A stretch of 48,136 bases of DNA from Lama guanicoe (taxonomy: Eukaryota): the NCBI GenBank assembly GCA_013239625.1, contig MU053917.1, positions 144,170 through 192,305 on the forward strand, written 5' to 3'. Of the stretch, positions 18,297 through 45,219 are shown piece after piece. A program made the position numbers and the translations under genes. Below the pieces are notes generated by a model that worked only from the letters and a program-made list of their open reading frames with translations, did not search any database and was not told the DNA's origin. Each line of letters starts with the position of its first letter. The first letter of the stretch is position 1.

Positions 18297-18489
18297 AATG
18301 CTCATCATAGCGTCCTATAGAACAATCACACTTTATCTACAAAACACAGTATCGGGCCGTGGATTGAAATCCAAAGTGATGAGATGTAAAGGAATTTTAG
18401 CTGGCGTAGAAAGCACAGAATGAGAGAAGTCGAGCCAGTAATTTTGTGTAGTTGGTGGAAGCTTTTAGCCGTGAAAGCTGCTGAGCCAG

Positions 18490-20143: not shown

Positions 20144-20710
20144 GCCCCTTCCCAGGGTCGGGCCACACTGGCCCAGGTCCCCACCATGCACGCTGGGCTG
20201 GCTCCCTCTTTCCTTCTTGTCTCCGCTTCCCCCTACCCGGTCCCCTCTGTCACCTCCTGTCCCTCTCTAGGACTTAATCCCCCCCTCTCTCAGTTACTCA
20301 CACACAGTCTCTCTCCCTGCCTGTGTCTTCCCCTGTCTCCCCCCAGGCCCTCAGGCCCTGTGCTCTGGTCCAGCCCTGTCCAGGGCCACAGGGCCCCACC
20401 TGTTCCAGCCCTTGCACGGTCACGGCCAAGTTGTGGCCCCGGACCTGCTCACAGTGGATGAAGTCTGGGCACAGAGGCTGCTCCCGCTGGTGTTCACTGC
20501 TGCCCCACTGTTCCCACTGCTTCCCGGGCGGCGCAGCCCCACATGCCCTGGCGGTGGCCTGGCCTGGTCCCCAGGGCCGCAGCAGGGCTGGCTGCCTCCC
20601 GCGCCTGGAAGGAGGGAGGGCCCTGCGGGCTTAAGGGGCTCCTAGGGGATTGGATTGAGGGACCACTAAGGAGCCAGATGGTTCTGCCCAACTCCTCTTC
20701 GTGAGTGGCA
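20144..20710 (-). repeat. Low-copy segment, inverted paralogue of 45220-45686; contains candidate exon 20604-20400
   Basis: Its reverse complement aligns colinearly with 45220-45686, e.g. cagcccttgcacggtcacggccaag vs cagcccttgcaccctcacggccaag. Confidence 0.85.
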
Positions 20711-22022: not shown

Positions 22023-22097
22023 ATGGAGGTGCTGGAGGTCTTGAGGCTGCTCTTTGGGCCCCAGTGGCTAGGGTGTCCCACGTACCAGGACGTGAAT
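22023..22097 (+). CDS. Candidate first coding exon ([25 protein letters not shown])
   Basis: gacATGG Kozak context and AAT|gtgagt phase-0 donor, in frame with the exon at 26002. No homology evidence. Confidence 0.45.
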
Positions 22098-25000
22098 GTG
22101 AGTCAACACGGGCACCGGGGGGCTCCTCCTTTCTCCTGGGCTTTCTTCCACACTGTGGTTAAGTCTCTGCTTTCTCATGGGGTCCTTGATGGGACCTCAC
22201 CCTTTGTGAAGACCGAGGCCCTCGGGGCAGGTTCTTGGCCAGCCTGGAGCGGCCCTGGCCACCGGCGTCCGTCCTCATCAAGATCTGGGTCCTGTCAGGA
22301 TTTCTTGGACCAAACACAGTAGGGTTGACAGGAGGAAGCCTGAAATAGTTACTTTGTTGCATCAAAGAAGGGAGTGTGAATGTACTAAAAGCCGTTGAGT
22401 TGTACGCCTACAATGGGGGAATGTGTGCATTATATCTCAGTAAAGCTGTTTTTTAAAAATCTGAGAACTTCTCATTTCCTAGGAGTCATAGAGTTAGGCC
22501 GACTTCTGGAGAGCGTGTCAGGATCCTGCTTCAAGCTGCACGTTCGGGTCCAGTCCCCGTGCGGCGCGCTCTCCTGGGAGTGCGCCCTTCCCAGCGGTGC
22601 CGTGTGGCAGCCCTGGGAGCAGCGGGGTCTCAGCTCTGGGCTGGCGCTGGTTGGTTAACCAGTGACGCGGCATCTGTGCTCTGTGCTTTCTGGTCTGTTG
22701 ACTTCTAGCAAGCTTTATTTCCTTTTTTGAGGAGTGTACTCTTTCATTCAGAAATTTTAATGTAACAAAAATACTCAGTAGCCCTATGTTTTTTTAAATG
22801 TCCTTATTGAAGTACAGTCAGTTTACCATGCTGTGTCCGTCCCTGGTGTGCAGCGCAGTGCTTCGGTCACATAGGAACGTGCGGATTTCCATATTCTTTT
22901 TGACCACAAGTTACTACAGTATATTGAATATAATCCCACATGCTCCACAGCATGAGCTAGTTGTTCTTCTACTTTATCTGCATGTTAGTATCTGCAAATC
23001 TCAAACTCCGTTTTTCCCTTCCCACTCCCTTCCCCCCTGGTAACTATTAAGTTTGCTTTCTATGTGAGTCTGTTTCTGTCTTTTAATTAAGCTCTTTTGG
23101 GGTTTTTTTAGTTTTTTGTTTGTTTTTTGATTCCACATGTAAGTGATATCATATGTTATTTTTCTTTTTCTTTCTGACTGACTTCACTTAGAATGACAGC
23201 CTCCAGGTCTATTCATGTTGCTGCAAATGACATCATTTTACTGTTTTTTATGACTGAGTAGTGTTCCATTGTGTAACTATACTGCAGCTTCTTTATCCAA
23301 TCACCTGTCGGCGGACATTCAGGTGATTTCCATGTCTAGGCTGTTGTAAATAGTGCTGCTGTGACCATTGGGGTGCATGTGTCTTTGAATTAAGGTTCCC
23401 TCTGGATGTATGCCCAGGAGTGGGATTGCTGGATCAAATGATAAGTCTGTTTTTAGTCTTTTGAGGAATCTCCACACTTTTTTCCACACTGGATGCACCA
23501 AATGACATTCCCACCAACAGTGTAGGAGGTCCCTTTTTTCCACACTGTCCAGGATTTCTCCTTTGTCGACTTTTGAGTGATGCCCGTTGTGACTGGTGTG
23601 AGGTAATACTTCAGTGTAGTTTTGATTTGCATTTCTCTGATAATTAGTGATACTGAGCTTTTTTCATGTGCTTATTGGCCATTTGTATGTCTTCATTGGA
23701 GAATTGCTTGTGTAGGTCTTCTGCCCATTTTTTTTATTGGGTTGTTTGTTTTCATCTTATTCAGTTGTATGGGCTGTTTATATAGTTTGGAAATTAAGGT
23801 CTTGTCAGTTTCATCTTTTGCAAATATTTCTCCCCTTCCGTAGGTTGTCTTTTTGTTTTGCTTATGGTTTCCTTTGCAAAAGCTTCTAAGTTTAATTCGG
23901 TCCCACTTGCTTATTTGTGCTTCTGTTTCTATTGGACTTGCAGCAGCTTCTGAGTCGTCCCTTTGCTTCTCCTCTTGGAGGCTGCCCCCGGGACCCTGTG
24001 TCCAGCCAGGTTAACGGGAGCCCTGAGAGCCCAGCCGATGTGGATATCAGTGGCTGCGGCCAGCTGGGATGTTTGTAACGGGGAAGTGCCTAGGAGCGAC
24101 ATGGCCGGGGGGACGCGTTGTCGTCCTTGCTTTAGAGTGAAGTGTCCACGTGCTGAGTGTTGATTTACCCAAAGCAGACAGGGTCCTTCGTGTCCTCAGA
24201 ATTGTTCAAATACAAAGGTAATTCAGGTACATACTGTGAAAGTTTTCACTCTCTCAGAATAAAGCGCCTTCATACCTAGGAAGGAGAGAGAGAGGCTGAG
24301 AACACCCCATGGATTTAGGTGGGTTTGTTCTGATGGGCGTGCAGCAGGTTGTTAGGGACCTGGGAGAATCACGTGTCAGGAACAACCTTGGCACCGAGGC
24401 AGCATCACGCCATGGGGACCCTCCACCCAAAGCAGAGTCTGTTCTGTGTTTTCTGAGCTCGCTAAGGAGGGTGTTTCCAGGTCATCTTTGTTGGGATGTT
24501 TCCCTCAGAGGGAACAAGGCTGAGCTCTCACAAGTGAGCAAAGCCCTCTTTCCCACCACAGCTTTGAGCATTTGGATAAACTGACTTGTCCTCCACCGTT
24601 GCTCATGGACAGAACCGGAGTCCTTCGGCCCTGGTGGGTAGAGTCCAGGTAGGAGGCAGCTACTGATGTCCGCGCTCAGACAGCACCATGCATGACAGGC
24701 ATGCCCACGACAAGGGGGTTTTACCAGTTGGTGACCAGACGGTGTTTGTGTTTTTGTGCCTTTGATCTGCACGTCTGTTCTCTGTGCTGAGAGCCACTGC
24801 TCGCTCAGACAGCGGCTACGCAAAGACCGTGCGTGCTTCCCACCAGCACACATCTTACTGACCTCACCACTGAGAGCTGGCAATGGCAGTGTTACCGAGT
24901 TCAAAGGCTGCTTTCTACAGAGGTTTTATTTGCGCAAGACTGAAGCTTGGTGTCTGGATTAGTATAAATGCCATTGTGCATTTACTCCCTGCTGTAGTAC

Positions 25001-28000
25001 TTACAAATCTAGTTTTTACAAAACCATGTGTTTACCTTTTGTTTTGGAGACCACACATTCCAGAAATACAGATTAATTTTCAGGATGGCTGTTCACCGGT
25101 GTAGGTACAATATTAAGAAGTATGCGTGTGAATTATTTGTACTGATTATTTTGAATTCTGTTTTCACATAACTTCATTCTCACAGTTCTAATCGTATTAT
25201 ACAAGATTACTGGATTATACAAATCTTTACGTATTTTGGAAGTCTGACATTACGTGCTCTGGTTCAGAATCAAAGTGAACGTTGAAAGAAAACCACCATA
25301 GGTTTTCGCATGTCGAGCTAAAATAAGGTATAATTAATATTCATTGGAATAGTAATTTTATTGTAACAGCAGCTGACCCACGTTCTCACTCATGTGCAAC
25401 AGACACACACACAAACGTCTCTGTGTGTTGCTCTCAGTTGTGTTTCAGCACTTACATTGGTTGCTGTTCTTTCCTGTCTTCTGTACGTTTTGGGTGTATT
25501 TTGGGGGATACTTCATAGGAGTTTACCCAGGTGCTTCATGAAAACACAATAGAGGATACAGGCTTCCCATCCCCTGTAGGTTTGTATTCATTTGTTTATT
25601 TTCAATTTCAAGTTGGCTTCTACAGTCATAAGTTAAGTTCTCTTAACTATTTTTTAAATGTTTGCACTGTGTCTGTCAGCAAGAGCAAGTCTGTAACACT
25701 CAGGCTTCTTTCTACAGCTTTAGTAATCATAGCACCTTCCAGTGAATGCCGTCTGTTGATGTTTGAAGGAGATGTGCAGGGATGACACCATCAGCAGATG
25801 AAGGCAGTGTCGTCCCCACACTCCCAGGAGCCTCCTCCTGCTCCCTTTGGGCTCGAGTGTCCGCTCTGTCTTCCCCTAGGAGCCACTTGAGGGGCGCGGT
25901 TGCCTCCTGGAGGCTGGCAGGGGGTTTGTAAAGACGATTCGTTGTGACAGATAAACTGTGAGTGTCTTTGAGGTTCCTCATTATCTCCGGTGTCATTTCA
26001 GATCGCCCACTTTCTGCCTGACCTTCTCCGCCCTGGGCCTGCTGTTTCCGGAGCTCTGTGGAGGCTTGGCACGATGGCTGCCTCCTGGGCTGTTGCTTCA
26101 TTTCTCGTGTTCCTGTTCCGGACCGTCCTTGCTGTGAGTGTTACTACAGTAACTGAGCGGTGTCCTTTTAATCACACCTAACAAGAATTTTGAGAGTCAC
26201 TGGAGTAAATTTAGTTGCATGCCTCAGCCAGAATCCAGGAGTCCCACCCTTTTCTTTGTTTCCTTTCAGATTACTCACATGAACAGAAATTAGTTTTGAA
26301 ATGGAAATTCATTGCAAAATACTGTCTTTTTAGTAAGAACTCAATGAGCAAGACCACAGTGTATTCTCAATGAGAAAACGACAATTTATAAGCCCTTCTT
26401 CTCAGTAACAGAACAGAACTATTTCGTGTTTGGTGAGCCCATCGCTGTTCCCACGTGGCCCTGCCTGTGTGGGGGGTGACGGGACCAGGAAGCTCAGCGC
26501 TCCCTGAGCAGCCTGTGAAGTTAGGGGAGCGCCGTGAGTGCCCGCCTGCCCCCCGCAGACGCGTGCTCCCGCAGCCCGTGGTTACCGCCGGCGTCTGGCC
26601 CTGTGACGGTACTCCCGTATCTCGTCGAGGTTTGGGCTGGCCTCAGTATCTCATCATCATTCAAAGTTTTGAATAAAAAAAATGTTTTGAGGGTCAAGGA
26701 GATGTGTGATTGCATGGCATTAAAGTGCAGTCCTGCCTGGGTTTACTGAGCTGTGATTCCTGACGTGGTGGCTCGCGTCTGAGTCAGGAGGCACTTTGGT
26801 TTCTGAAATGGTCGCCGCCTGTCCTGCTGCTGCTCGTGCTCTTATTCCAGCCGTTGCCCACGTCCGTTCTCATTTGCTGCCTTCTTAGGTGCCCCTGTGT
26901 GTTCAGTGGTCCTCAAAAGTCTTAGGACCTCATGTGTGACAACTGTGCATCAGTTCAGCACACAGTCAGCTCTGCATAAGGTTTCAGAAAAGCTTGTAGT
27001 GAGTCACACGGGCTTATCCTAGTGTAAAGGTGTTGCCTGCATTTTTCTTTTAGTTCCCCCCCTTTTTTTTTCAAGGTTATACAACAACCCAGGCTCTGAC
27101 TTTAGTGTGGATGTGTAAGGTTTGACAATAAAAAATTCAGATAAATGATGCATCCTTGTATTTGTAAGAACGTCTTATGAACATAAAATAGTTAACAAGC
27201 ATTATAAAAGTTAAGTAGATTGGTGTTTATTTAATAGAATGTAAGCCGATCTTGTGGCCCCAAATCAGTTATTTACCCTTGTGCCTTCTATCAGAAATGG
27301 TGAGTGAAAGATCGTGCCTGAAATAGGAAATGCTGATTTTCGTTATTTTCAATGATATAAATTGTTATGCTGAACCGGAATGCTAATCGTCGTTTCAGTG
27401 GATTACTGTTTTGATAGTTTATTACAGACTGTATATTTACTAATTATATGTTTTGACATCAAGTTTAATTTTGCTTCTTTCTCTCCTAGATGAAGCGTCC
27501 AAAGAAGTATCAAGGTAAGATATTGGGGTCTAGTTTTCTCTGTAATATATTCTCATTACTGGGATTCAGTGTGGATTTTAATTCAACTAAGAGTAAACAC
27601 AGTGACTTCTGATGTCAGACCTCTGAACTCTTGAAAAATTTCCTCCTGGGATGGTGTGTACATGACACCATAGAGGAAGTTGGCGTCTATTGAGCTAAGA
27701 AGCCAGGAGGGTCACAGGAGGAGGGAGACCAGGATGAGTTTGATTTTGCATAGAAACCTTTAGGAAGCAGGTGATGAGAAGAGTGATGTTTGCAGTGACT
27801 CCCTGATGTGACCTGGGTCTTGGTGAAGAGTAAAGGTGCTGAAACACCAGTGGAGCCTGTCAGGACGCTCCAGGCTGAGGGGGGACGCAGGTGTACCCAG
27901 GCGTGTGTGGCACAGCTGAGGGGAAGCATGGGCTGTGACCCGGAAGTGAAGGGGGCCATTAATGCCGGTCGAGACTTAATGAAAGGGACGCAGCCTGAGG

Positions 28001-31000
28001 TTGGTGCTTTCTGTGCAGGCTTCACGGACTCTGCTGACCGAGTAGGGGTGTGCGTGGTGGTCAGGGCGGCTGCCCGGTGCTCAGTAGGCCCTCAAGGACT
28101 GGTGTTGGTGACAGTGGATGCAGAAGTGCTGGTGCTGAGAAGAGGGATCTCAGCATCAGAGCTTCCCCGCTGGGCAGAGAGATGCGTGTGCGCTGTGTGG
28201 TCACATGAGGGAATTAAATGCCCGAGAGAGAAGCCTGGTTCTCAGGGCCGCGTTCTGGAGCGTCACACATGGAGTCACCTGTGGCCGACTGCTTTGTGTG
28301 TGCTGGTGTCCTGAAGCAGTGATGGGAGCATTCTCATCCTGGGGATGGAAAACTTGTCTTCAGGGCCTGTGAGTCACCCAGGTCCTCCAGTGACTAGGTG
28401 GGGAAGCCCCCATGGTACGGAAGTGTCTAATTCCAACGACCTTGTCCTTCAGGGCCCCCAGTGTGGTTTCCATGACAGGCAGTCAGCTGGGCAGCAGGAA
28501 GATGGGGAGGCATCTTTGAGTAGCCAGTCGACATTTTGAACTTGCCTTCTGTGGAATTGCACTTAGGGTCTAGAAGTGAGGTCAACGTGAATGAAATAAG
28601 GTTGTTTTTTTTAAACAGAGACTTATTTATTTACCTTCATAATTGGATATTTGATCTTTGTTCCATCCCTGGTGGTGACATAATTATTTGAAGTGACTGA
28701 ATTTTCTAGGAATGGTGCTTGGAGATGGGAGGGAAATTAGGAAAAGACTTTTTATTGTATTTCTTCATCTTTGAAAACATTTTAAATGGGAATATCATTG
28801 AATCCAGCTTTTCTTACATATAAAATGCTACTAAATTTTGTTTCCTTCAAGCACAATAGTAAAGCTGAAAAGTTAGTTACACTCATGGTACCAGTCAGAT
28901 AATGTGTCTCTGCTGCTGATACATTGGGATAATTCAATTTAACTGGGTTTTCCTACCAGTCCTACAAATTGCTTTATCTTCTTTTAGTTAACTTACTGCG
29001 AACAAATAAGAAGATCAATAGCTTCATGAAAACAAACAGAGAACTTTCAAAAAGTATATCTTTGTTGGAACAGAAGGTACCGTCCTCTTCTTGTTTTTCA
29101 TGATTTCACCTGCACCTCCTTCCACCTCTGAGAGCTCGGCAAGTTTTCTCTCTTTTGTTTCATCCTGCTGTCCCATTTCATATGTTCCACAAAGAGTCCA
29201 AATTCACAGCCAGCCTCATAGATGCGAAGCACTGCTTTCTGTGTTTGTGGGAGGAATCACACACAGAAGAGATGATGGTCTAACACTGTAATTAATGCTT
29301 GTAATCCTGATTCCTTTTTCCGCAGATCACTGAGTCAAAGATAAGTCGCCGAGACACCACTCGTCACAATAGGATGCTCTCTGGGGAAGCCCTTAAATTT
29401 AAGGTAAAACTCCTCCTTTCCCTGGATCACACTCCAAGAGCGGTGGCACGATAAGGCGGAGCTGTCACTGATGCAGCGTGTGTTGTTGGAGGGTAGCATC
29501 TCTGAGCGACAGCCTCCACGTCCGCGCGGGGCCGGCTCCGGGAGAGCCTGGCACTGCTGCGCTGGCCGGCATGGGGCTCCGAGGCGCTCTGTGCACTGGG
29601 CAGGCTGTGCGTTCCCCTCCTCTTGCTTTTGTCCACAGCAGAGTGTGGGAGTTGGGAGCGGCACCTCCCTGTGAACAGTGACCCAGAATTTCATGGTCTA
29701 AAACCTCCGTGACTTTTCCTATTTCAGAGACTAGGAAATACATTTTACTTTCACAACCTAGGGAGTTTTCTTGCCACTCACAGCGCCCTCCGAGATACAT
29801 GGAAAATGCCAGGAAACACCTGAGAGGGGAAGGAAGTTGCTAGCCAAGGAGTACAGCCCCTTGCCCTGTTGATGTTCAACAGGGAACTTTCCATGTGAAT
29901 TTGGATAAACTGGGTGTGTATTCCACCAGGGACACTCATTTGTGAGCTCTTCGACATGATAAGTTTCCCACCCTTGCTTCCCCTTGTCGTCCGGTCGTGC
30001 CTCCCATTGTCCAGTGAGGAGGAAGTCTGTGGAGGTGAGGAAGTAGCTGTGCCTGGAGGTCTTTCTTTGTTCTGCATTTCTTCGTGGGCTTGACATTCGT
30101 CCCGGGCCCAGCCTGGATCAGCCGCCATCACAGGAAACTTAGGGGTGGCTGTGGGAAGCATGGGCTGTGACCCGGCAGTGAAGGGGGCCATTAGTGCCGG
30201 TCGAGACTTAATGAAAGGGACGCAGCCTGAGGTTGGTGCTTTCTGTGCAGGCTTCACGGACTCTGCTGACCGAGTAGGGGTGTGCGTGGTGGTCAGGGCG
30301 GCTGCCCGGTGCTCAGTAGGCCCTCAAGGACTGGTGTTGGTGACAGTGGATGCAGAAGTGCTGGTGCTGAGAAGAGGGATCTCAGCATCAGAGCTTCCCC
30401 GCTGGGCAGAGAGATGCGTGTGCGCTGTGTGGTCACATGAGGGAATTAAATGCCCGAGAGAGAAGCCTGGTTCTCAGGGCCGCGTTCTGGAGCGTCACAC
30501 ATGGAGTCACCTGTGGCCGACTGCTTTGTGTGTGCTGGTGTCCTGAAGCAGTGATGGGAGCATTCTCATCCTGGGGATGGAAAACTTGTCTTCAGGGCCT
30601 GTGAGTCACCCAGGTCCTCCAGTGACTAGGTGGGGAAGCCCCCATGGTACGGAAGTGTCTAATTCCAACGACCTTGTCCTTCAGGGCCCCCAGTGTGGTT
30701 TCCATGACAGGCAGTCAGCTGGGCAGCAGGAAGATGGGGAGGCATCTTTGAGTAGCCAGTCGACATTTTGAACTTGCCTTCTGTGGAATTGCACTTAGGG
30801 TCTAGAAGTGAGGTCAACGTGAATGAAATAAGGTTGTTTTTTTTAAACAGAGACTTATTTATTTACCTTCATAATTGGATATTTGATCTTTGTTCCATCC
30901 CTGGTGGTGACATAATTATTTGAAGTGACTGAATTTTCTAGGAATGGTGCTTGGAGATGGGAGGGAAATTAGGAAAAGACTTTTTATTGTATTTCTTCAT

Positions 31001-34000: not shown

Positions 34001-37000
34001 TTCCAGATTGGGGTCAGTCCTCTCAAACCCTGCGGTAGTTTCTCAGCTAAGTTCATGCACTCTCGTAAGTCCTTTGTTATTTCAACCTTCTTCACAGCAT
34101 CTTCACCAGGAGTAGATTCCATCTCGAGAAAACAATTTCTTTGCTCGTCCATAAGAAGTAGCTCCTCATTCGTGCACATTTACCACACGGTTGCAGCCGT
34201 TCAGTCACATCTTCGGGTTCCGCGTCTAACTCTGGTTCTCCTGCTATTTTCAGCACATCTGCAGTTCTTCCTGCACTGAGGTCTTGAGCCCCTCAATGTC
34301 ACACATCAAGACTGGAATCGATTCCTTCCAAACCCCGGTTCATGTTGATAGTTTGACTTCTTCCCATGAATCACAGATGTTCTTAATGACATCTAGAATA
34401 GAAAATCCTTTTCAGGAACTTTCCCATTCATTTGCCCAGACCCATCAGTGGTGTCACTACCTTTGGCAGCTAAAACCTTCCAAGGTGTATTTCTTACATA
34501 ATCAGATTTGAAAGTCATAATTACTTCCGCATCCGTGGGGTGCAGAATGGATATCGTGTTAAGCATGAGGACAGCATTCATCTCATAACATCTCCCTCAG
34601 GTCTCCTGGGTGACCGGGTGCATCACCAATGAGCAGTAACATTTTGAAGGAAATGTTTTGCGTCTTTTTTAAGCAGTAGGACTCAACAGTGGGCTAAAAT
34701 ACTCAGTCAACCATGATGTAAGCAGATGTGCTGTCGTCCAGGCTTTGTTGCATTTATAGAGCACAGAGTAGATTTCACATGATGCTTATGGGATGTAGGA
34801 CTTCCAGAGTGTTAAATGAGCATTGGCTTCAGGGTACAGTCACCAGCTGCGTTGGCCCCTCACAAGAAGATCAGCCTGTCCACGGAAGCCTCGATGCCAG
34901 GCGCTGACTTCTCCTCTCCAGCTGTGACTGTGCTGGGCGGCCTCCCCTTGCAGTTCTCTGCATTGAAAATCTGTTTCGTGCAGCCACCTTCATTGGCTGT
35001 CTTAGCGTCACCTCCTGGAGCACTTGCAGCAGCTTCTGGGTTAGGTCTTCCCGCCTTACCCTTGCACAGATATGCAGTGGTGATGGAGTCTTGCCTTAAA
35101 CTTCATGGATCAAGCCTGTGGCTTCATACCTCTCTCGCGTAGCCTCTTCGTCTCTCTCAGGTTTCCTAGAATTGCTGAGTTAGGGACTTCCCCTGGATTA
35201 GGCTTTGTCTTAAAGGAATGTCATGCTTCTTTTAAATCAAAATGATAAAGAATGAAATATTTCAAGAAATACCAAAATGTGACACAGAGATAAGAAATGA
35301 GCAAATGCTGTTGGGAAAAAATGTCACGGATAAAGTTGGTGGACTCGGGGGTGCTACATGTCTTCAGTTTGTTTGAAAAAACAAAACAAACATCATGAAG
35401 GGCAGTGAAATGGGACATGTGTGTTGTAGACATGAGCTTGCTCTGGGAAGGTAAGTGGATTCCTGCCTTCAGGATTCTCTCCTTTCTCCACCCCCAGCTC
35501 AGCCAAGCTCTTGTGTGCGCACGTACACGTGCAGAGACAATTGTTTTGTGTTTACAGAAAGTGAAAAGAAAGCGCAAGCCCACCACGCTGCGTCGGGGTG
35601 TCTGAAAGTGGGGAAGGAAGCCAGTCTCCACCGGCGGGAGAAGAAAGTGCGCTTCCTTGATGAAATCTGTGGAGAAGGAAGTTTGGGCACCCAAGGGTAA
35701 GGCGTTCCGTGTTAATTCCGACACATGCTGCCGTGTGAATGAATGTGTGGAAACGTGGATGTCACGATGTGTGTCAGAATTCCCACCACCATTTTTTACC
35801 GTGTTTGACCTGGACGTGTTTGGTTTACTTTCCTGCCGTGATTTGTCACCTGCTGCTTTTCATCCTGACTGGTCACCGGAGGTCTTGCTTGCGTTTAGTT
35901 TGACATCTTAGCGGGTTCTTGGGCCAGATTCAATCACTTCGTTATCTGGATCCTCCTGAGTCCATTTTCATTGTCCTTCGGTTTCAAGCCCATCATAGTG
36001 TCATGATCTGCCGTGCATCCATAACGTTTATTAAACTCTAGACGCTGTGTAGAAAATAGAGAAAATCGGAGGCCTCGTGTGAGGTTAACTTGCTGCAGAG
36101 AAGGTGGGCGTTACAGCTGGCAGGTGATCAGGGCGCCAGCAGTGCTGCGCCTGTTAACCCAGTTAGCAGCTGAGATCAGTCAGTGTAGGCTCAGCCCTCC
36201 TGAGGCCCGTGTGTCTCCTGTCCACCTCTACTCCTGGCACGTAGCTCTCGTGGATCCCACCTAAGGCCTGCGGGGCTCCCTAGGAATCACCTGCGCTGAC
36301 GGCCGTGAGCTCCAGCCGTCTGACTGCAGTGTCCGTGTGTGGGGAGGTGGGTCACCAGCTGCCGGGCTGCTGTGTGCCTCAGTGGTTTCCTCTGTAGTTG
36401 CCGGGTGAGCCCTGGGGAAGGTGGACCCCGTCCTGGGCTTCCTTCTCCATCTTGGCGTCATGTTCCTTCCTGGCTTGTTAGCAACTTGGTACCTTTGTTC
36501 ATGGACTTCATAATTTGTCCAGCATTTCCTTTCATTCTCAGGGGGAGGTCATGGACTTCACACCCATTAACCCACGTTCAAAAGGAAACATTTTCTTCTG
36601 TTCCCTGAAGAACCAGGTTTTGCCCCAGGCTTTGACTGAAATCAGGGCTCTCCATGGGAGAAATGAAATGAGTCATGAACGCTTGCTTCATCCTAATGTG
36701 TTCGGTTGTGATGACTTGGTCAGGCCGTGTGTCCCATGTTGAAACGCAGTGAGCTCGCGCTGTCCCGGTCACAGGAGCCTGAGCCTGGGGGCGCCCGGAG
36801 CGCAGCTCACTTGGGCTCTTCCTGTGAGCGTACTTTATGCACAAGTGATTAGGGATGGAGACGCTGAAGGGAAGCTCGGGTACCAAACACTTGCCAGAGG
36901 TCTGAGTTTAATTTTTTCATACCTATTAATGGGGCCTTTAATTCTTTCCTCTGTATTTGTCAGTCTGTGCATTTATGGGGAAGGGCGAAAGGAACATTGA

Positions 37001-40000
37001 ATTCTTCCCTTCCATTTTCTGGGAGGGAAACTGGCAGAATTTCACAGAGTTTCTTTTCCTCTTAGCAAGGTGGACATGAACAGATGTGAGCTGGTGGAAA
37101 AGAAGCAGCTGTTGGCAGCAGAGGAGAGGGCAAAACTGGCTGAAAAAGAGACACGAATGTACAAGTGAGTTCAGCTCCTCAACACCCGCAGCTCAGAAAA
37201 TCCCTCATGGATTTTTTAAAAGCTTTTCTAAAATGTTCAGACACAGTATCATACACAGACCAAAACAAATGTTCAGAAGACATTTGTATTCATACTTCAC
37301 ACAGGAGAGAAAATGTTAAGTTTTACACACGTTAAGTTAAAGGTTTAACTTTACAAAATATTAAGTTACTAAGAATTTGCTGGTCCCCAGTGCTGGCCAG
37401 ACTGTGGAAAGACGGTTCACAGAGGTGTTTCTGAAGGTGCTATAAACTGCTCTCAACCTGAGGACAGCAGTTTGGTGTAGCGTCAGGTGCACCAGTAATT
37501 ATGGCCACGCCACTGGAGAGAACTACATGTCGTAAGGCTGAGAGGCAGGACAAGGATGTAAGGAAAAGAAGAATCGAATTTTATGATGAAAGATACTCAG
37601 TACAGGATACAGTAGGGAAATGCTGAGGATGGGCAAGGAAATTACGTGAGCGCAGAACGTGGCGGGCATGACGTAGTGGTGAGGGAAGGAGTGACTGCAG
37701 CGGTAGCTTCGAGCCTACTGTGCTTGTATAGTCATGTGACATCTGTCATGTGTGGTTAGGCAATGTGTACAAGCGTGTAGTTCGGATCATATGACTTGAG
37801 CAGGTTATTTAAAATCATACCCAGCATTGTGTTTTCTCTGATGAAACAATTTGTACCTCGTAGGAGAAGACTTGAAGAATTGCAACAGAAAATGCAGGAG
37901 GCAGAGGACGCCTTCAGACACCAGGTACCCTGCCTTCCCCCTGACACACCCGAGTCCTCGGCACCTGATGCAGACGGTTCCCGTGGCCCTGAGAGCCCCA
38001 ACCACGGGCCGTTTCTTGTGTTGACTTTTTCAGATCACACTTGCTGAGAGGAAGGCTGCAGACAACTGGGTGAGAATTTGTTCCCTTCCTTCCGTTTGTG
38101 CACAGTCGGCCACAACTGAACGTGGGTGTGGTTTTTCTCACACAGCTCAGGGCTCACGGCCTGGAGATGGAAAAGGCTGAGATGAGAAGAAGGGAGGTTG
38201 CCCACCTGAAACAAAGGTACAGAATTTTGACACATTTTTAAGAGTGTTTTGAGATTTCTAAGGATTGGCTGTTTGTGTCTAGGAGAGGAATTGATGATGT
38301 AATCCTTGTTGAAGCCATTCTTTCTCTGCCTTTAAGATTGGACGTCGCCTGCGGACAGAGGCAGGCAGGGGAGTGCGTGAGGCAGGCGCCTACCCCAGGG
38401 GGACCACACAGGCTGCCTCCACACAGGCTGCCTCCTCCCCTGAGAGGTAAGGAGCGCACCGTGAAGGGCAGCAGCTTCATTTCTGCAGCAAAAGCCGCCC
38501 AGTGGACTTCTTGTCCCCATGGGTGATTGTTGGGTTTCCTGGACACCATGCCATACACTCACCGCAGGGAACAGGTTCCCACTTGACTGACAGAACACTC
38601 TTTTCACATGCCACCCGCCAGCAGGGCTCTGTCCCCTGTGAGCAGTGGGCCGCCCCCCAGGCCCTTGGTTGGCTGGCCTGGCTGGTTTCTGTGCACTAGA
38701 AGACATGAGCGTCAGCACCCTCTTCCCTCCTGGAGACACTGTTGAAGGCTGGATTTTCCTTTGATTTCAGAAACATAACATGCACAGTGTTTTAGAATGA
38801 AGGCAGTGTTTCTTGATGAGGAAAACATCATCTTCGTTTGTCTTGGTGCATTAATATTCTATTCAAGATCTGCTTTAAGACAGCCAGCATTTCTTTACTA
38901 CTTTCGCAGGTCCCTTCATTCTTACAAAAAATGTTGCACAGTGACCTAGAGTAGCCAGCTAGTAAGTGACATTTCTACGTAGTCTCAGTCTTCCAGAGTT
39001 GTAAGTGTAACTCTAGATCTTCCATTGGATTCTCCAGATACTTCACCATTGTTTTGCCCATTATTACAATATTAGTCTTTCTAAAGCCACTTCTTTCATA
39101 AATACTTACACCTGGTCACTTAAACAAGACATTCTATCAGACTGAAAGACTTTAAAAATTAACCAGTGGGCTGACGCGAAAGCGAGGTGGAGCTCGTGGT
39201 CAGGGGGCGTTGATACTCTTCCTATGAACGGCTCTTCTGTTTTCATGTTTAACCTGCATAGAAACTGTGGCTTCCCCTGAAGTGTATGGTGAGTCCCCTG
39301 CGTGAGTGCTGATTTCCAGGGATCTGAGCCGTGAGCTCCCATCCAGGTTAATTAGTTATGAAAACACCTGGACTAGGGCTCTGGGGTGTCCTCAAGGGTC
39401 AGGGGCCCAGGCTCCCCTGGTCCTCGGGGTCGCCTGCGACACGACGGAAGCCCTCCGCCTCTGCCTGCAGCCCAGGCGTGGGCGGGAGCGGGCGTCTGTC
39501 AGAGTCGGCCGTCAGCGCTGCTCTCCCTTTATCAGGTTCAGGACCTGGCGCCGCGCCTGTGAGGAGCAGAGGCTCCTTCCCCGACGAGGAGGCCGAGGAC
39601 ACCCAGGTGAGAGCCTTCTTCCCGTCGTGTCTCCGTGGTCATTTTGTGTCGGGACTATCTCTGGAAACATCTGTTTTTCTCCAACCGCCCTTTCCTGGCC
39701 TTGCCTCTGGATTGGGTGTTCTGTGATGCGTCTGCCGTGTCACTTTTCAAAAGCAGACTCTTCCCCACGGCCTCTCCACTCAGCGGGTCACCTTTGGTGC
39801 TGCCTACACAGGCCATGGGTGCTTAGAGGCTGCAGACGGCAGGGCTGGCTCTGCGGCCGGAAGCAACCCGAGGGGACGACACTCACCTCCGCGCACGTCC
39901 CCTGGCGCGGCTGGCTCTTGTTCCCGGAGAAGAGCGTTTCACGTTACGCTCACGTAGCCCGGTTCCCTGACGGCCCGCGCAGCTGCAACAGTTGGTAAAT

Positions 40001-42946
40001 CTTCTGAGCGTGGTTGAAAGGACTTTTCCTTCTTGGTATCAAAATACGTACCTTTTAATTGTGTCATTTAGACAATTCCAGACAGTTTTCCACAGAACAA
40101 GGTTAGTCTGCTTTTGCTAGTTTACGTTAAATTGAGTATTGCCTGTGGAGTGAGATAAATCCCACGGCTGTGCCTGTGTGACTTCTGTGGGCATTGCTTC
40201 TGCCCGGAAACCCCTTCCCAGCTTGCCTCCAGGCCTCCAGGATTGCCATCTGCCCAGAGATCTTTGTGACCCTGGACAGCACCGCCAGACAGGACGAGGG
40301 GAGCAGAGGCGCCCAGCAGGGCCCGGCAGTCAGAGCTGGTCAGCACCCTGCTCTGCCTTTGGCAGCAGTGTGACCCTGGGGGTTTATCTCTCTCCTCGTT
40401 GAGCCTTGGTTTCCTTACGATTAGAGCAGGATGGTCACTGTTACCTTGCGTAGTTCTGAGAATCAGAGACAGGACGTGAAAAGTCTTTATGAGTCTCAGC
40501 TGAGCAGCTGTTGCATGTGTGGAGAAGGGACCTAGACCTTAGGTAAACAATCTGGTTCTAAGCCTCCAGGAGTAACAGAGAAGCCCAGAGTTCACAGAAA
40601 GAAGGAAGGAATACAGATGAGAGGAAATGAATGAAACAGCGAAGATGAAAACCATAAAAAAGGTGAACAAAACCAAGAGTGTGTTGTTGAAGAGGGTTTT
40701 AAAAATTGACAAGCCTTTACCTAGACTAACAAATTGTCAAGAGGGAGAGGACCCACGTCCACAGCATTATAAATAAAACAGGAGACGTTATGACTGATGG
40801 CACCGAAATACGAAAGATTGTAAGAGGCTACTGTGGACAGCTGCACAGCAACATACTGGACAACTTATACAAGAAATGGAAAGACTGTATTTCCTAATTC
40901 TAATATATGACCTACCAACACTAAATCGGGAAGAAACAAAACAGACCAGTTACTGCAAAGATGGAATCAGCTGTATTAAAATCCCGAGAAAGAAAAACCG
41001 AGGAACTGACGGCGTCGTTGGTGAAGAGAACCAGACAGTAAACAGGGACTTGATGCCAGCACCCCTCTAGCTCTTCCCAAAACTCAAAGAGAAAGGAGCA
41101 CTCACACTTACTTTCTGAGGCCAGCGTTGCCCTGATACAGAGGCAGAAAAGGCCTCTACAAAAAATGGAGGCCGAGCTCCCTGATGAGTACAGATGCAGA
41201 ACTGCTCAGAAAATACGAACAGTTCAAATTTATCGCCACATCAAGGGCATCATTCTCCATGACCACGTAGGATTTATGTTGGGGGACACACAGGTGGTTA
41301 AATGTGATGCATTGACGGAAGGAATAAAAGCTCCTACGGCCGTCTAAGTAGGCACAGGAAAGGCCTCTGACAGGGTTCAGTTCCCGTCCCTGGCATACTC
41401 TCTTACCAGATTAGGTCCAGAAGGAACTCGCCTCAACAGGGTAAAATCCACACACGTGCACAGCTGGCGCTGTACTCTGTGGTGAACGTTTCAGAGCCTT
41501 TCCTCTGAGATCAGGAAGGAGAGCAGAGTCCAGCGCCCACGCTCACCACTGCCGTTCCGTCTAGGACAGGAAGCTGCAGCCAGAGCGGTAAGACAGGGAA
41601 AAGGAGAGAGTCAGACTGGAAGGGAAGGAGCAGAGTGGCCTGTTTGCAGACGACATGGTCTCATGTGTAGAAAACGCCCGATGTCACCACCAAACAATGT
41701 TAAATTTAATGAACAAATTCATTTAAGTCGCAAGATAAAAAACAATTAATAGTCCATAACAGCATTTTTAGTCATTAACAGATTATCTGAAAAAAAAAAA
41801 AACAAAGGACACGACCCCACTTACAATAGCACCAAAAATAGTAAAACGCTCGGCAACAGCTTTAACCAAAGAGGTGAAAGATGTCTGCACAGAAAACTAC
41901 AGAACACTGATGAGAAAAATGAAGGTGGCACAACTACATGGGAAAGTCTCCCATGCTCATGAATTGGAAGAATTATTATTGTTAAACTGTCCGTGCCCCA
42001 GAAAGCAATCCACAGATTCGTTGCTTTCCCTTTCAAGATTTCAATGTCATTTTTATAAAAGTAGGGAAAAAATTCCTAATATTTATATGGATTCCCCCAG
42101 ACACCCTGGGGAGCCAACGTGATTTCCTGAGAAAGAAGAACACAGTGGTGGAGGCATCACAGCCCCCAATTGCAGGCTGCGTCATAAAGCTGTAGTTCCC
42201 AAAGCTGGCACGAAGCCAGACCCGGGACCGGTGGGACGCGCGCAAGAGCCCAGCAGTGAACCCACGCGGACACAGGTCACCGGACACTTGACAGGAGCCG
42301 CGGGTGCTCAGTGGAGAAACGGCAGTGTCTGGGATAAGTGGCGCTGCGGAAGCTGGGTGTTCCCGCGTGGAAGGATGGGGCTCCTGTCTTCTACCCCCAA
42401 AGTTTAACTTGGAGTGGCTTAAACCCTTAAGGGGAAGACCTGAGACCACCATTCCTTCTCCTCTCTGCTCTTCGCTCTCAGAGAAGGAGCCGTGGTGGGG
42501 GGGTGGCCCTGGGGATAGATGCTGGCTTGTCTCTGACCCCCGAGGCCTGGTCCCTTCCCTCCCTACGTGTGCAGCCCCTGGCAGTGACTTACAGCCTGGC
42601 CTCCTACAACTTCCCTCGGTTCCCAGTGGGACCCGCCAGAGGGCAGAGTTTGGGGGGCACTGATGCTGTTCTTTGGAACCCTGGTGGATGGGGAGGTGAC
42701 AGGGACGGATCCTGTCTTGGCTGGCGTTTGTGTTCGTGTGTTTGCCCACCATAGTAACATATTTTGAAACTGTCTTCTGTCCTGCAGGTCCGTGTGGCTG
42801 GAAGAGCCCCCCGTCCCATCCCAGCAGCAGCCTACGTGCTGTACCCCAGGCGATGTCCACCACCCTTCGTGGGCTGTGTGTCACCTCCACCGGGACCACC
42901 CTGGTGGCCCTGGGACCTCAACCGGCACCTCCACCTCCACTCTGTG
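22023..42946 (+). CDS. MIA3: Multi-exon diverged MIA3/TANGO1-like (cTAGE family) gene with short-isoform architecture; a paralogue rather than the orthologous MIA3 locus; functional or pseudogene status uncertain
   Basis: Series of AG/GT-bounded exons whose order, lengths, phases and translations follow the TM, coiled-coil and proline-rich exons of human MIA3 as recalled (see the individual exons). Confidence 0.85.
22788..23935 (-). mobile_element. 5'-truncated LINE-1 3' end (intronic)
   Basis: T-run, then ttattgaagtacagtcagtttac 3' UTR. ORF 23319-23543 gives [23 protein letters not shown]...[11 protein letters not shown]. Confidence 0.93.
26002..26133 (+). CDS. MIA3: MIA3-like membrane-anchor exon (132 bp, phase 0-0)
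   Basis: tttcag|...|gtgagt. [44 protein letters not shown] matches MIA3 LVATLPDDVQPGP...IASFAIFLWRTVLV in length (44 aa) and motifs. Confidence 0.92.
27490..27514 (+). CDS. MIA3: MIA3-like micro-exon (25 bp, phase 0-1)
   Basis: ctcctag|...tatcaag|gtaaga. MKRPKKYQ compares with VKDRVYQ. Confidence 0.85.
28988..29076 (+). CDS. MIA3: MIA3-like coiled-coil exon, copy 1 (89 bp, phase 1-0)
   Basis: cttttag|...|gtaccg. [30 protein letters not shown] compares with [30 protein letters not shown]. Confidence 0.88.
29326..29403 (+). CDS. MIA3: MIA3-like coiled-coil exon, copy 1 (78 bp, phase 0-0)
   Basis: ccgcag|...|gtaaaa. [26 protein letters not shown] compares with [26 protein letters not shown]. 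Confidence 0.88.
31220..31308 (+). CDS. MIA3: Duplicate of the 89-bp exon (copy 2)
   Basis: Same sequence and splice sites as 28988-29076. Confidence 0.8.
31558..31635 (+). CDS. MIA3: Duplicate of the 78-bp exon (copy 2)
   Basis: Same sequence and splice sites as 29326-29403. Confidence 0.8.
32375..32528 (+). CDS. Candidate remodelled coiled-coil exon (154 bp, phase 0-1)
   Basis: aacttag|...|gtgagg. Open frame [55 protein letters not shown] matches the end of the expected MIA3 exon. The acceptor is weak. Confidence 0.45.
32925..32996 (+). pseudogene. MIA3: MIA3-like exon with in-frame stop (72 bp, phase 0-0)
   Basis: gaag|...|gtaaat. [23 protein letters not shown] compares with [24 protein letters not shown]. 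TGA at 32982-32984. Confidence 0.85.
33448..33520 (+). CDS. MIA3: MIA3-like exon (73 bp, phase 0-1; alternative acceptor gives start 33452)
   Basis: ttgcag|...ctggaag|gtatgt. Ends in EDCSLE, compared with STKCNLE. Confidence 0.7.
33554..35421 (-). mobile_element. Tigger1 (TcMar) DNA transposon, internally deleted and decayed
   Basis: ORF 33937-34179 [32 protein letters not shown] matches the Tigger1 transposase C-terminus. Both ends resemble Tigger1 terminal regions (accaaaatgtgacacagaga...aaatgctgttgg). Confidence 0.9.
35558..35696 (+). CDS. MIA3: MIA3-like exon (139 bp, phase 1-2)
   Basis: tttacag|...|gtaagg. ESEKKAQ...KVGKE...KKVRFLDE...TQG aligns ungapped over 47 aa to DQVKKLE...KAGLE...QKVEILNE...LQK. 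Confidence 0.88.
37066..37164 (+). CDS. MIA3: MIA3-like exon (99 bp, phase 2-2)
   Basis: ctcttag|...tacaa|gtgagt. [33 protein letters not shown] compares with [34 protein letters not shown]. Confidence 0.88.
37864..37924 (+). CDS. MIA3: MIA3-like exon (61 bp, phase 2-0)
   Basis: ctcgtag|...|gtaccc. [20 protein letters not shown] compares with [20 protein letters not shown]. Confidence 0.9.
38034..38069 (+). CDS. MIA3: MIA3-like exon (36 bp, phase 0-0)
   Basis: ttttcag|...|gtgaga. [12 protein letters not shown] compares with IATHEKKAHENW. Confidence 0.92.
38146..38216 (+). CDS. MIA3: MIA3-like exon (71 bp, phase 0-2)
   Basis: cacacag|...|gtacag. [24 protein letters not shown] compares with [23 protein letters not shown]. 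Confidence 0.9.
38337..38446 (+). CDS. MIA3: MIA3-like exon (110 bp, phase 2-1), start of the proline-rich region
   Basis: tttaag|...gagag|gtaagg. [36 protein letters not shown] compares with LLELTQK...KPMPGKPNTQNPPRR. Confidence 0.85.
38610..38715 (+). pseudogene. Degenerate MIA3-like exon remnant
   Basis: ggctctgtcccctgtgagcagtgg (SPVSSG, compare SPVSGG). The expected acceptor reads ttttcacat, with no in-phase AG. Confidence 0.5.
39536..39606 (+). CDS. MIA3: MIA3-like exon (71 bp, phase 1-0)
   Basis: tttatcag|...cag|gtgaga. [24 protein letters not shown] compares with [27 protein letters not shown]. Confidence 0.8.
40550..42450 (+). mobile_element. Old LINE-1 ORF2 fragment (intronic, sense)
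   Basis: Decayed ORF2 wording (aaaattgacaagcctttacctagactaac, gaggtgaaagatgtctgcacagaaaactacagaacactgatg) and peptide [10 protein letters not shown]. Confidence 0.88.
42788..42946 (+). CDS. MIA3: MIA3-like proline-rich exon (159 bp, phase 0-0)
   Basis: cctgcag|...|gtaaga. [12 protein letters not shown]...PPPFVG..SPPPGPP compares with VNMAPKGPPPFP...; the MIA3-like ending GPQPAPPPP lies in a shifted frame. Confidence 0.8.
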
Positions 42947-43885
42947 GTAAGATGAACGCACAGTCAATCTGTGTCCTTTGAGTCTCTGCTGAAGGAGGGG
43001 AGTTGTCACTCCAGGGCTTTGCAGCACAGGGGTAAACCTGACCGAGGACACCGTAACGTTCTAGGTCCTTAGCGCGCACGTTTGATGGACTGTGTCATTT
43101 CCCCGCCCTGACCTGGGCAGCAGGTGTCTCCTGCAGAGAAGGAAAGAGGCTTGTGACAGAAAGTCAGACGTCCCAGTTCTGCACGTGTGCCTGGTGCGCG
43201 GACCATGTTGTGTGTGCTCTGTGAGGGGGGAGGCACATCCGTAACTTCAGGGGCTTAAGGTGTTTCCTCGAGAGGTGGGGAGGAGACAGAGAGGGGGAGA
43301 GAGACAGTCAGAACAGATGGCTTGTGGTCACCGTAAGAGAAGGGCCAGTACAGGGCCCCGGAGTACAGAAGAGGGACACGTGAGCCACACAGGAGCAGAT
43401 AGGTGGCTGTGGAGGAGAAGGAAGGAGATGAGGGGTGCCCAGTGGGGGTTTGTTGGATTCGCTCAGATGGAGCTGGAAGGTCACTCCCAGCAGGGCAGGC
43501 CGTTGGGGCAGGATGTGTGAAGGCAGCACGGGGCCCACGCAGAGCCACGCGTGTGTTCAGGGGGCCCAGTGCGGCCCTGCAGTTGTGCCCGTCAGAACCC
43601 GCTGCTGCCAGAAAGCCCTTAGTTCACCACCTTCTGCAAAGATGACTATCGCCCTTGGGCTTCTGAGTGTCCTGTCCCAGGTGGAGGAAAGCCCTGGGCA
43701 TGAGGGAAACTGACGTTTAACTGGGTTTGTTCAGGATATTTTGTGTGGCTGAAGTTTTCTTTTGCCCCAGTGATTCGAAAAGTGCAGGCAAGTTTCAGAC
43801 CAGCTGAGCAGCTGTCTGGGCCTTCAGCATGAGGCAGCTTCTTTGGGAGATCCGTGGGTGATCAGGGGGACCCCCCCCCTTGCAG

Positions 43886-44218
43886 GACCCTTCTCCCCAC
43901 ACCCCTGCACCCTCTGGTCACCACACCATCAGCTGTGCATCTGCCACGTTTATGTCACAGTCTCCAATTTCTGATTCTTTGCTTGAATTCCTGACGTTCA
44001 GTCCCGAATACCGAGACTCAGGGGGGCCTCCACAGGGTCTCAGGTTTGTTACATGTGAACCGAGGGTAACGCTGGTTTCGGATGTCATTGTGAGGAAGGT
44101 TGGATCAAGTACACATACTATTTTCAAAAATGGACATACTTCTCACTCAGCATTCTCCTATTTAAAAGAAAATGTCTGCACACGGATTCATCAAAAGGTA
44201 CCCCGGCAAGTACATTAA
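43886..44218 (+). CDS. Candidate terminal exon (110 codons plus stop)
   Basis: cccccccccttgcag acceptor, open in phase 0 to TAA at 44218, with ATTAAA at 44298. No recognised homology. Confidence 0.3.
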   Translation, partial: DPSPHTPAPSGHHTISCASATFMSQSPISDSLLEFLTFSPEYRDSGGPPQGLRFVTCEPRVTLVSDVIVRKVGSSTHTIFKNGHTSHSAFSYLKENVCTRIHQKVPRQVH

Positions 44219-45219
44219 GTTAAACTAAAGATACGAGAGCTCAGGCCGAGTTTACCACTGTCTTCTTTGAAGGTGAGGCGAAGGGTCCCTTTCTTCTATT
44301 AAAACTCATGTCTTACTAGTTAAAGAAGGAAGTGTAATAATGAGAGTGTGTGCATTTTGGGGTCTGTGTCTGAGGTCTGAAGACAGTCATTTTCGTTATA
44401 TAGACACACACAGATGCACATGCAACTGCAGTGTCCATTGGAGTCCATACATACATAAGAGAAGGCAAAACAGGAAAGAAGACCCCATCAAAACACAAAG
44501 CCCTCTTTGCCTTTCAGGACAGTCGGTGTGAGCTTTGAAGAGGCCCCTGCGCTGCAGCAGTGACACATAGAGCTGACGGCAGAGGCACATTACGGCCCCG
44601 GTGTCTCCCTGCTCCATCCTGCCCCCTCTGCTGTGGTCTCTCCTGTCGTCACCCCTAATAAACCTGTTACAGTTCTCTGTCTCAGTGTCTGCTTCCTGGA
44701 GGATCAGTGGTCACACCCTCTCAAGGGGACACAGTGCGATTCACGGGCACACAGTTCACAAGCCAGCAGGAACTAGGGTGTCAGGGCAGACGCAAGGTCA
44801 CCCCTGTTGGGCAGCAGTGACCGCAGGAGCCCAGGAGCTCCCCCTGGGGCGGTGGGCACAGCCTATGTCTAGATCCAGTGATGGCGGTGTTTCTTCCGTC
44901 TATAAACACTCACTGGGCACACAGGGTCTGTCAGTCACAGGGGTGTCCAGTCGTGAGACACATGACCAGGATGAAGGGGCCGTGTCTCGTGGTGAGGAGC
45001 GGACAAGGGGCCAGGAGCAGCCGTGGGCGTCCAGCGAGAGGCCCTGCACTGACCCAGGCCTATGCCTCTGCCCCACGTGGTCACCTGCCCCTGCAGCCCC
45101 AGTTCTAGGGGGACTGAGGGCAGCAGTTTTCTCAGTAAGTCCCATGAGCTTCCTTCATCCTCCCACAATTTCCTTACTACGAAGTGAGCAGGGCAGGGGT
45201 CACTGTTTGGGACAGCACC

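Follow-up and report, generated by a model that had tools for sequence, protein, structure and literature searches.

The last 48 kb of a 192-kb contig of Lama guanicoe (C1934; GenBank MU053917.1), a stretch of 48,136 nucleotides referred to here as the window, hold an intron-bearing gene on the forward strand at 22023..44218. The gene resembles the half of MIA3 that specifies the short form of TANGO1 (TANGO1-short). The surrounding sequence is mammalian DNA with L1 fragments, a GC content of 34–60%, and two runs of N. From the evidence described below, the gene is probably one copy of a camelid-specific, dispersed, intron-bearing family that derives from an old DNA-level duplicate of the TANGO1-short half of MIA3, in the same lineage as the NPIP/morpheus genes of primates.

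A preliminary description of the window listed 14 exon starts with canonical splice sites and compatible phases, adding up to 1218 nt (406 codons) without a stop. The exon chain assembled from these starts and the nearest strong GT donors bears out the splice sites and the phases, with AG at 13/13 acceptors, GT at 13/13 donors, and an ATG at the opening of exon 1 (context GACATGG). The length had been given slightly too short, since the chain comprises 1227 nt, or 408 codons, and a TGA at 42953-42955. The gene reads open because three splice-competent exons are skipped, namely the second copies of exons 4 and 5 and a relic exon with an internal TGA. With this proviso, the absence of stops holds over all 408 codons.

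The gene has a close counterpart in alpaca. When the protein encoded by exon 2 was searched, a single match at E ≤ 10 was returned (41 candidates), and this is the alpaca RefSeq protein P0001 at 100% identity. The spliced window protein is identical to P0001 at 397/406 positions. The differences are three replacements and two in-frame insertions or deletions (indels), one of 5 aa, which corresponds to a 15-nt tandem repeat, and one of 1 aa, and all of them are located within the last 130 codons. Two isoforms are predicted from the locus in RefSeq, where X1 (P0002, 409 aa) begins with a different N-terminal sequence, and the NCBI name of the gene refers to TANGO1. The C-terminal tails of the window protein and P0001 differ because the RefSeq form splices a GTAAGA donor after 42946 to a last coding exon at 44518..44538 (+), which encodes DSRCEL and a stop, as at the C-terminus of P0001. 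The extent first given for the gene, to 44218, contains the internal chain, while the RefSeq-type last exon lies beyond it. Given the identity to an independently predicted alpaca protein, the exon chain is not a chance open reading frame. The gene is real in the sense of independent prediction; it is already in alpaca RefSeq, so it is ordinary in that respect.

All exons are read on the forward strand. Exon 1 (22023..22097; 75 nt) provides the first 25 codons of the X2-type model, which are residues 1-25 of P0001. Exon 2 (26002..26133; 132 nt, phase 0) encodes the transmembrane (TM) segment, with the most hydrophobic 19-mer at residues 50-70. It is followed by a micro-exon, exon 3 (27490..27514; 25 nt, phase 0), and by exon 4 (28988..29076; 89 nt, phase 1), exon 5 (29326..29403; 78 nt, phase 0), exon 6 (33448..33520; 73 nt, phase 0), and exon 7 (35558..35696; 139 nt, phase 1). 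The part resembling the second coiled coil of TANGO1 (CC2) begins with exon 8 (37066..37164; 99 nt, phase 2). Exon 9 (37864..37924; 61 nt, phase 2) precedes exon 10 (38034..38069; 36 nt, phase 0), which ends in a ...DNW motif common to MIA3 and NPIP. Exon 11 (38146..38216; 71 nt, phase 0) is longer in two paralogues, through in-frame additions of 18 and 81 nt. In these loci (L032 and L033) the growth consists of a repeated 21-nt (heptad) unit, that is, the coiled coil has grown by tandem repeats. Exon 12 (38337..38446; 110 nt, phase 2) contains the 15-nt tandem repeat (38404-38435) that adds five codons relative to the alpaca model, and is followed by exon 13 (39536..39606; 71 nt, phase 1). 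Exon 14 (42788..42955; 168 nt, phase 0) encodes the proline-rich tail and ends either at the stop or at the alternative GTAAGA donor. The protein has three PPP motifs, at residue 325 and, in the product of exon 14, at residues 377 and 386.

Derivation from MIA3

The true MIA3 of the same genome has been located at C8876:14694737-14713108, in a search of 2.05 Gb of assembly. It is on a contig other than that of the window, in line with the preliminary description, which held that the true gene lies elsewhere. Its exons are 70–92% identical per exon to Mustela TANGO1S. Spliced by script from the TM exon on, they measure (phases in brackets) 132 (0), 22 (0), 89 (1), 78 (0), 111, 72, 105, 123, 112, 56, 91 (0), 139 (1), 102 (2), 61 (2), 36 (0), 68 (0), 101 (2), 138 (1), 69, 80, 151 (0), and 341 nt. 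From the TM exon on, the window gene agrees with MIA3 in phase at 13/13 exons and is identical in size at six of the 13 (132, 89, 78, 139, 61, and 36 nt). The preliminary description had put the exons of 25, 99, and 71 nt at a difference of 3 nt from those of MIA3, and this holds against the MIA3 of the same genome (22, 102, and 68 nt). Exons 6 and 13 are paired only tentatively, with the MIA3 exons of 91 nt and 138 nt, respectively.

Six MIA3 exons for the first coiled coil (CC1; 111, 72, 105, 123, 112, and 56 nt, together 579 nt and in frame) have no counterpart in the gene model. A relic of one CC1 exon is found at 32925..32996 (+). It has the 72 nt of the MIA3 exon (phase 0 there) and keeps its AG and GT, and contains an in-frame TGA at 32982-32984. 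The window gene therefore lacks the full CC1 of MIA3 and, by length mapping, most of its TEER stretch (human residues 1255-1295). The proline-rich tail is also short, with three PPP motifs compared to six in the MIA3 of the same genome. By position, too, the window gene on C1934 is not the orthologue of MIA3, for which the genome has a single locus, on C8876.

Because all 13 exon phases match MIA3, six sizes are exact, and the true MIA3 lies on another contig, the window gene is a DNA-level, intron-keeping duplicate of the TANGO1-short half of MIA3 and not a retrocopy. In this respect the preliminary description was right. It was also right that the protein is strongly diverged while frame and splice sites are kept, and that the in-frame length changes are real. 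In a phmmer search, MIA3 proteins were matched at E-values from 2.4e-30 (Mustela TANGO1S) to 1e-17, with Sarcophilus at 2.4e-21, while a MIA2 protein (Polypterus) was matched at 3.1e-7 only. Judged by these scores, the window gene is nearer to MIA3 than to MIA2.

Primate cTAGE genes are mostly intronless retrocopies of MIA2/cTAGE5. The resemblance of the window protein to TANGO1 in its TM, coiled-coil, and proline-rich parts would also be expected of a cTAGE-type retrocopy, or of the true MIA3 or MIA2 of a divergent species. However, the 13 introns of the window gene stand at MIA3 positions, the locus on C8876 matches Mustela TANGO1S exon by exon at the identities given above, and MIA2 scores far under MIA3, which leaves this explanation a negligible chance. 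Elsewhere in the genome, two intronless stretches (C55225:11228772-11230001 and 11235477-11236775) are 28–37% identical to TANGO1-short. One of them is located in a 463-codon open frame and the other is interrupted by many stops; both may be retrocopies of the cTAGE type in this camelid.

A camelid gene family and its kinship with NPIP

A word-based protein search returned 36 proteins at E ≤ 1e-3 (7129 candidates), and nine more were obtained from a longer-protein band. Nearly all of them are camelid models, 40–60% identical to the query; muntjac, reindeer, and ibex models are also present. In alpaca the relatives are spread over at least 11 different contigs, many of chromosome size. Several relative models are fused to foreign domains, including fn3, JAKMIP_CC3, KH, ankyrin, and actin. 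An exhaustive phmmer search gave 177 matches at E ≤ 1e-3, of which 95 are at ≤ 1e-10 and 24 at ≤ 1e-30, and names were looked up for 20 of the matches. Short paralogues under the name 'TANGO1 homolog' occur in dog (formerly 'MIA3-like'), clouded leopard, zebu cattle, rabbit, and Tamandua. Among the longer matches are a brown bear model (1578 aa, 'uncharacterized protein') and models from two squirrels (1005 aa with SH3, and 1867 aa, 'A-kinase anchor protein 9-like').

The genome of the window itself contains further copies. With a 3.8-kb exon-intron query (exons 7-12 with their introns), a genome-wide copy count, as suggested in the preliminary description, gave at least eight further near-full copies at 77–82% identity and many fragments on small contigs. 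This number is a lower bound from the best 40 of 1263 candidates, which were scored; among these 40, no copy more than 88% identical to the 3.8-kb stretch was present.

Two further phmmer matches, at 4.6e-8 and 2.0e-6, are bona fide NPIP proteins from primates, with 322 and 331 bits on Pfam PF06409. A pairwise BLASTP comparison of P0001 with one NPIP protein (P0148) gave 4e-18, with a colinear alignment that begins at the TM exon and extends as far as the ...DNW exon. Pfam was then scanned with the 95 phmmer matches of up to 1100 aa, the 41 longer ones being set aside. Among the 95, 21 matched the NPIP family at E ≤ 1e-4, 16 of them above the cut-off, including one that also has the SH3 domain of TANGO1. 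In a smaller Pfam scan, 1/13 relatives was above the NPIP cut-off.

The relationships were examined in a careful IQ-TREE analysis of 42 rows and 408 columns, rooted on a MIA2 protein. Nine near-duplicate or gappy rows had been dropped from the initial 51, and long proteins had been trimmed to the part matching the window protein or the MIA3 of the same genome. In this tree, placental MIA3 and all the short paralogues are grouped apart from marsupial MIA3 (100/100), and all the short paralogues, including NPIP, form one clade of 32 rows (100/100). Within it, 13 rows form a camelid-only clade, where the window gene branches off second from the base (100/100 and 99/96). The alpaca also has a gene, P0050, that is placed with the ruminants (94/82), which suggests that P0050 is likelier than the window gene to be the copy in the ancestral position. 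The end branch of the window gene is 0.43, compared to 0.042 for the MIA3 of the same genome. A quick tree of all 51 rows agrees with that of 42 rows. Long branches are present, and the exact rooting inside placental MIA3 is to be taken with care.

By the tree, the founding duplication is old and stem-placental, and only the later multiplication is camelid-specific. The NPIP/morpheus genes of primates are, on their common clade, members of the same lineage, as are the short genes annotated as 'TANGO1 homolog' in dog, cat, cattle, deer, rabbit, and Tamandua. The preliminary description had seen in the window gene a fast-evolving, lineage-specific duplicate, which amounts to a recent copy of MIA3 born in its own lineage. 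The shared MIA3 exon plan and the NCBI name after TANGO1 agree with such an origin. On the other hand, the window gene is located inside the 100/100 clade with Tamandua, rabbit, carnivore, ruminant, and NPIP sequences, and the nearest copies in its own genome are just 77–82% identical even with introns included. A recent origin is consequently very improbable, and the reading as a camelid copy of an old MIA3 offshoot is followed here.

For a MIA3 origin of NPIP, the only printed statement found is a remark, in the accessible part of a 2017 preprint (10.1101/116087), that NPIP is 16–27% similar to the N-terminal region of MIA3. In the accessible part of a study of NPIP evolution (PMC7419210), MIA3 is mentioned 0 times. 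A literature search found no paper on a camelid expansion of NPIP/MIA3-type genes.

Frame, sequence, and condition of the window copy

The 3.8-kb stretch was aligned end to end with two paralogous loci, which are ~80% identical to the window and 92% identical to each other. The comparison of exons with introns and the dN/dS estimates therefore cover 6/14 exons (165 codons) and two of the at least eight paralogues. Exon and intron identities are 400/498 and 2691/3214 in the first pair (80.3 vs 83.7%, Fisher p 0.06), 395/501 and 2631/3145 in the second (78.8 vs 83.7%, p 0.01), and 468/516 and 3002/3191 in the third (90.7 vs 94.1%, p 0.006). When CpG sites and splice-site flanks are removed, the direction stays the same, with p = 0.15, 0.09, and 0.08. 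All that is claimed from this comparison is that the exons are no better conserved than the introns.

The reading frame behaves differently from the amino acid sequence. Over exons 7-12 all three copies are stop-free, and the splice dinucleotides are kept at 36/36 positions (three copies × six exons). The exon indel events measure 3, 15, 18, and 63 nt, so that 4/4 are multiples of three, compared to 8/44, 7/41, and 2/19 of the intron indel events in the three pairs. Thus the frame and the splice sites are protected, while the amino acid sequence is almost free to change, ~10× faster than in MIA3. In its accessible part, PMC7419210 reports open reading frame maintenance and neutral-like change for NPIP in monkeys and dog, a testis-biased ancestral expression, and a dog orthologue. 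The pattern reported there is that of the window family, in which protection extends to the frame but not to the sequence.

Several observations weigh against reading the window gene as a maintained member of the NPIP lineage. Many of them would suit an unprocessed pseudogene, perhaps transcribed, that is dying or dead and has an open frame only in a model that skips the damaging exons. Constraint at the residue level is not visible, as the exons are at least as diverged as the introns and dN/dS over the 165 codons is near 1, at 0.57–0.74 (NG86), 0.61–0.94 (LWL85), and 1.02–1.11 (YN00, two pairs). A 2232-bp tandem duplication at 27921..32387 (+), with arms at 27921-30155 and 30153-32387, is 99.3% identical and has no N at the joint. 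It carries a second exon 4 (31220-31308) and a second exon 5 (31558-31635), both of them exact, with 0 differences, and with intact AG/GT sites. Splicing in both exon pairs would add 167 nt, shift the frame, and produce a stop at codon 147. The relic CC1 exon is splice-competent despite its TGA, and is skipped in the gene model. Further upstream, stops interrupt several fn3-type exons of this copy, and the start codon of the X1 type has been lost to GTG. The three replacements and two indels that separate the gene from the alpaca model, crowded into the last 130 codons, would also suit decay.

Other points of this kind come from database searches. P0001 scores 17.3 bits (E 0.0042) on the Pfam NPIP family, below the gathering cut-off of 27.5. 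No Camelus protein above ~71% identity was present among the matches listed (150 of the 177 phmmer matches, and the word search), and this counts against the gene because the tree places the window copy before the Camelus-Vicugna split. No RNA run was found among the 20 runs, from eight studies, that share 0.65–0.79 of the words of the stretch (DNA or unclassified), and one targeted-capture RNA run is connected to it by species label only, which is uninformative either way. In addition, every functional statement made for the product is drawn from homology.

Against a dying copy, 408 codons in 14 exons are free of stops. In 20,000 runs of simulated random substitution on the 408-codon coding sequence, 38%, 10%, 1.9%, and 0.07% remained stop-free at d = 0.02, 0.05, 0.09, and 0.18, which gives chances of 0.019 and 0.0007 at the last two distances with indels not counted; the intron divergence from the nearest sequenced copies is ~16%. 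The in-frame exon indels and intact splice dinucleotides of the three copies, the fact that both indels relative to the alpaca model are in frame, and the two protein isoforms predicted by RefSeq also argue against decay. The tandem duplication may be real or may be an assembly artefact. Decay of this copy is thus unlikely, although it retains an appreciable chance, and the gene is treated below as a maintained copy of the camelid family. The preliminary description had favoured a fast-evolving gene over neutral decay, and had named dN/dS near 1 together with random disablement as the outcome that would speak against it. This view holds in part: the frame is clearly protected, but the rate of amino acid change, with dN/dS from 0.57 to 1.11, is close to neutral.

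The upstream part of the duplicated unit has also been traced. The exon for the N-terminus of isoform X1 is located at 4636..4776 (+), with GTG at the position of the start codon (4693-4695) and a TGA at 4660-4662. An X1 first exon just upstream of exon 2 had been considered and was ruled out by stops. The fn3-type upstream exons of paralogue models have colinear counterparts here, which start 2.3 kb ahead of the window and extend to 20462. Positions 2732-4777 and the contig just before the window (L019) have colinear matches to the fn3-bearing N-terminal exons of P0007, P0008, and P0039. From these matches, the duplicated unit spans at least ~45 kb. The 130 kb upstream on the contig were screened only against family proteins, and the contig ends where the window ends.

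Inside the gene, between exons 5 and 6, an intron contains a JAKMIP_CC3-type exon of 84 open codons at 32375..32626 (+), with 58.7 bits for Pfam PF16034. It is coding in the paralogues P0010, P0011, and P0078, being used by dromedary paralogues, and is outside the RefSeq model of this gene. It begins at the end of the tandem duplication. An exon-like match to residues 188-225 of P0007 (76%) is found at 20349..20462 (+), with an inverted copy at 45396-45506. The two belong to an inverted pair that flanks the gene, 20164-20939 (+) and 44992-45673 (-), with arms 68–76% alike and an exon-like match in each. A direct repeat pair, 72% alike, occupies 5879-6411 and 47034-47545. At 18329-18892 (-), an open frame matches cytochrome oxidase subunit III (28.1 bits); it is located in a 234-bp tandem repeat (18487-18955), adjoins a run of N, and is probably mitochondrial DNA that was inserted into the nuclear genome and duplicated. 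Ten long open frames around the gene were tested on both strands, and eight contain no Pfam family, the other two being the JAKMIP exon and this mitochondrial insert. No CpG island is present at the 5' end of the gene, where CpG o/e is 0.23–0.32. A sequence search of the PDB gave 0 matches at E ≤ 0.1.

Predicted product and comparison with known systems

The predicted product, of ~410 aa, begins with a short N-terminal part and a single TM helix. A strongly reduced CC1 and a CC2-like coiled coil come next, and the protein ends in a proline-rich tail that is short and has three PPP motifs. In TANGO1, according to the accessible part of PMC5851698, CC1 residues 1255-1295 (TEER) mediate self-association and the recruitment of NRZ and ERGIC, CC2 binds cTAGE5, and the domain rich in proline (PRD) binds Sec23 and Sec16. 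By length offset (1907 vs 785 aa), the TEER stretch maps onto the 78-nt and 111-nt exons of MIA3, of which the window gene keeps the first and is missing the second. Retained in the window protein are the products of CC1 exons one and two and of the CC2 exons, as well as the short PPP tail. By homology, the product would be a coiled-coil membrane protein anchored in the endoplasmic reticulum (ER) or nuclear envelope. Its CC2-like part may still pair with cTAGE5/TANGO1 assemblies, and its PPP motifs may touch Sec23 weakly, most COPII contacts presumably being gone. Because most of TEER is gone, the product is probably unable to self-assemble or to recruit the NRZ tether and ERGIC membranes. At ER exit sites, such a protein would be a modulator or a competitor; alternatively, it could have taken on a new function of the sort proposed for NPIP. 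If ancestral NPIP is a guide, its expression is probably testis-biased.

NPIP/morpheus is the textbook family that drives segmental duplication, with extreme evolutionary speed in apes, and its function and origin are unclear. What is new here is a camelid member and a camelid expansion of the known NPIP-like kind, the gene itself being already in RefSeq. The comparison shows clearly that the NPIP-type genes branched off from the TANGO1-short half of MIA3, and suggests a possible site of action for NPIP-type proteins, at the ER/nuclear-envelope membrane and the COPII exit-site machinery. It also reveals that the family multiplied a second time, independently and in a group other than the primates, so that camelids could serve as a comparison for why the gene spreads and why its frame, and not its sequence, stays.

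As in the LCR16a core duplicon, the copies of the window family are dispersed at the DNA level with their introns, and their exons diverge at least as fast. It is conceivable, although we would put it somewhat below an even chance, that an equivalent of the ape LCR16a/NPIP core duplicon has arisen separately in camelids. This would be a MIA3-derived gene on a duplicon of at least 45 kb, present on a dozen or more chromosomes, that has acquired fn3, JAKMIP CC3, KH, ankyrin, and actin exons and that keeps its frame while coding change equals or exceeds the intron rate. If so, NPIP-type behaviour would be a recurrent property of the MIA3 offshoot in mammals and not a primate oddity.

Compared to MIA3/TANGO1-short, the window gene has the same exon plan and phases over a region that begins with the TM exon, includes CC2, and reaches into the proline-rich part, and shows ~30–34% identity over residues 147-386. 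Both are short forms that begin just upstream of the TM exon. The window gene differs in not being the orthologue, as the true MIA3 is on C8876, in the absence of the six CC1 exons (579 nt) and with them, by length mapping, most of TEER, in the absence of most of the PRD (three vs six PPP), and in evolving ~10× faster (end branches 0.43 vs 0.042). With the primate cTAGE family (CTAGE1/4/6/8/9/15) it shares the lineage-specific multiplication of a TANGO1-family member. In contrast to that family, the window family keeps its introns and derives from MIA3.

The closest parallel is NPIP/morpheus (LCR16a core duplicon, PF06409). The two are homologous from the TM exon to the ...DNW exon and belong to the same 100/100 clade. 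Both have many dispersed, intron-bearing copies with changing exon sets and fusion models with neighbouring genes, and in both the open frame persists while amino acid change proceeds at the neutral rate or faster. On the other hand, the expansion of the window family took place in camelids, independently of the primate ones, and its copies are old (~80% identity), whereas NPIP duplicons are recent and of high identity. P0001 also falls under the Pfam NPIP cut-off (17.3 vs 27.5 bits). Finally, NPIP proteins have C-terminal repeats in the place where the window protein has a TANGO1-like proline-rich tail.

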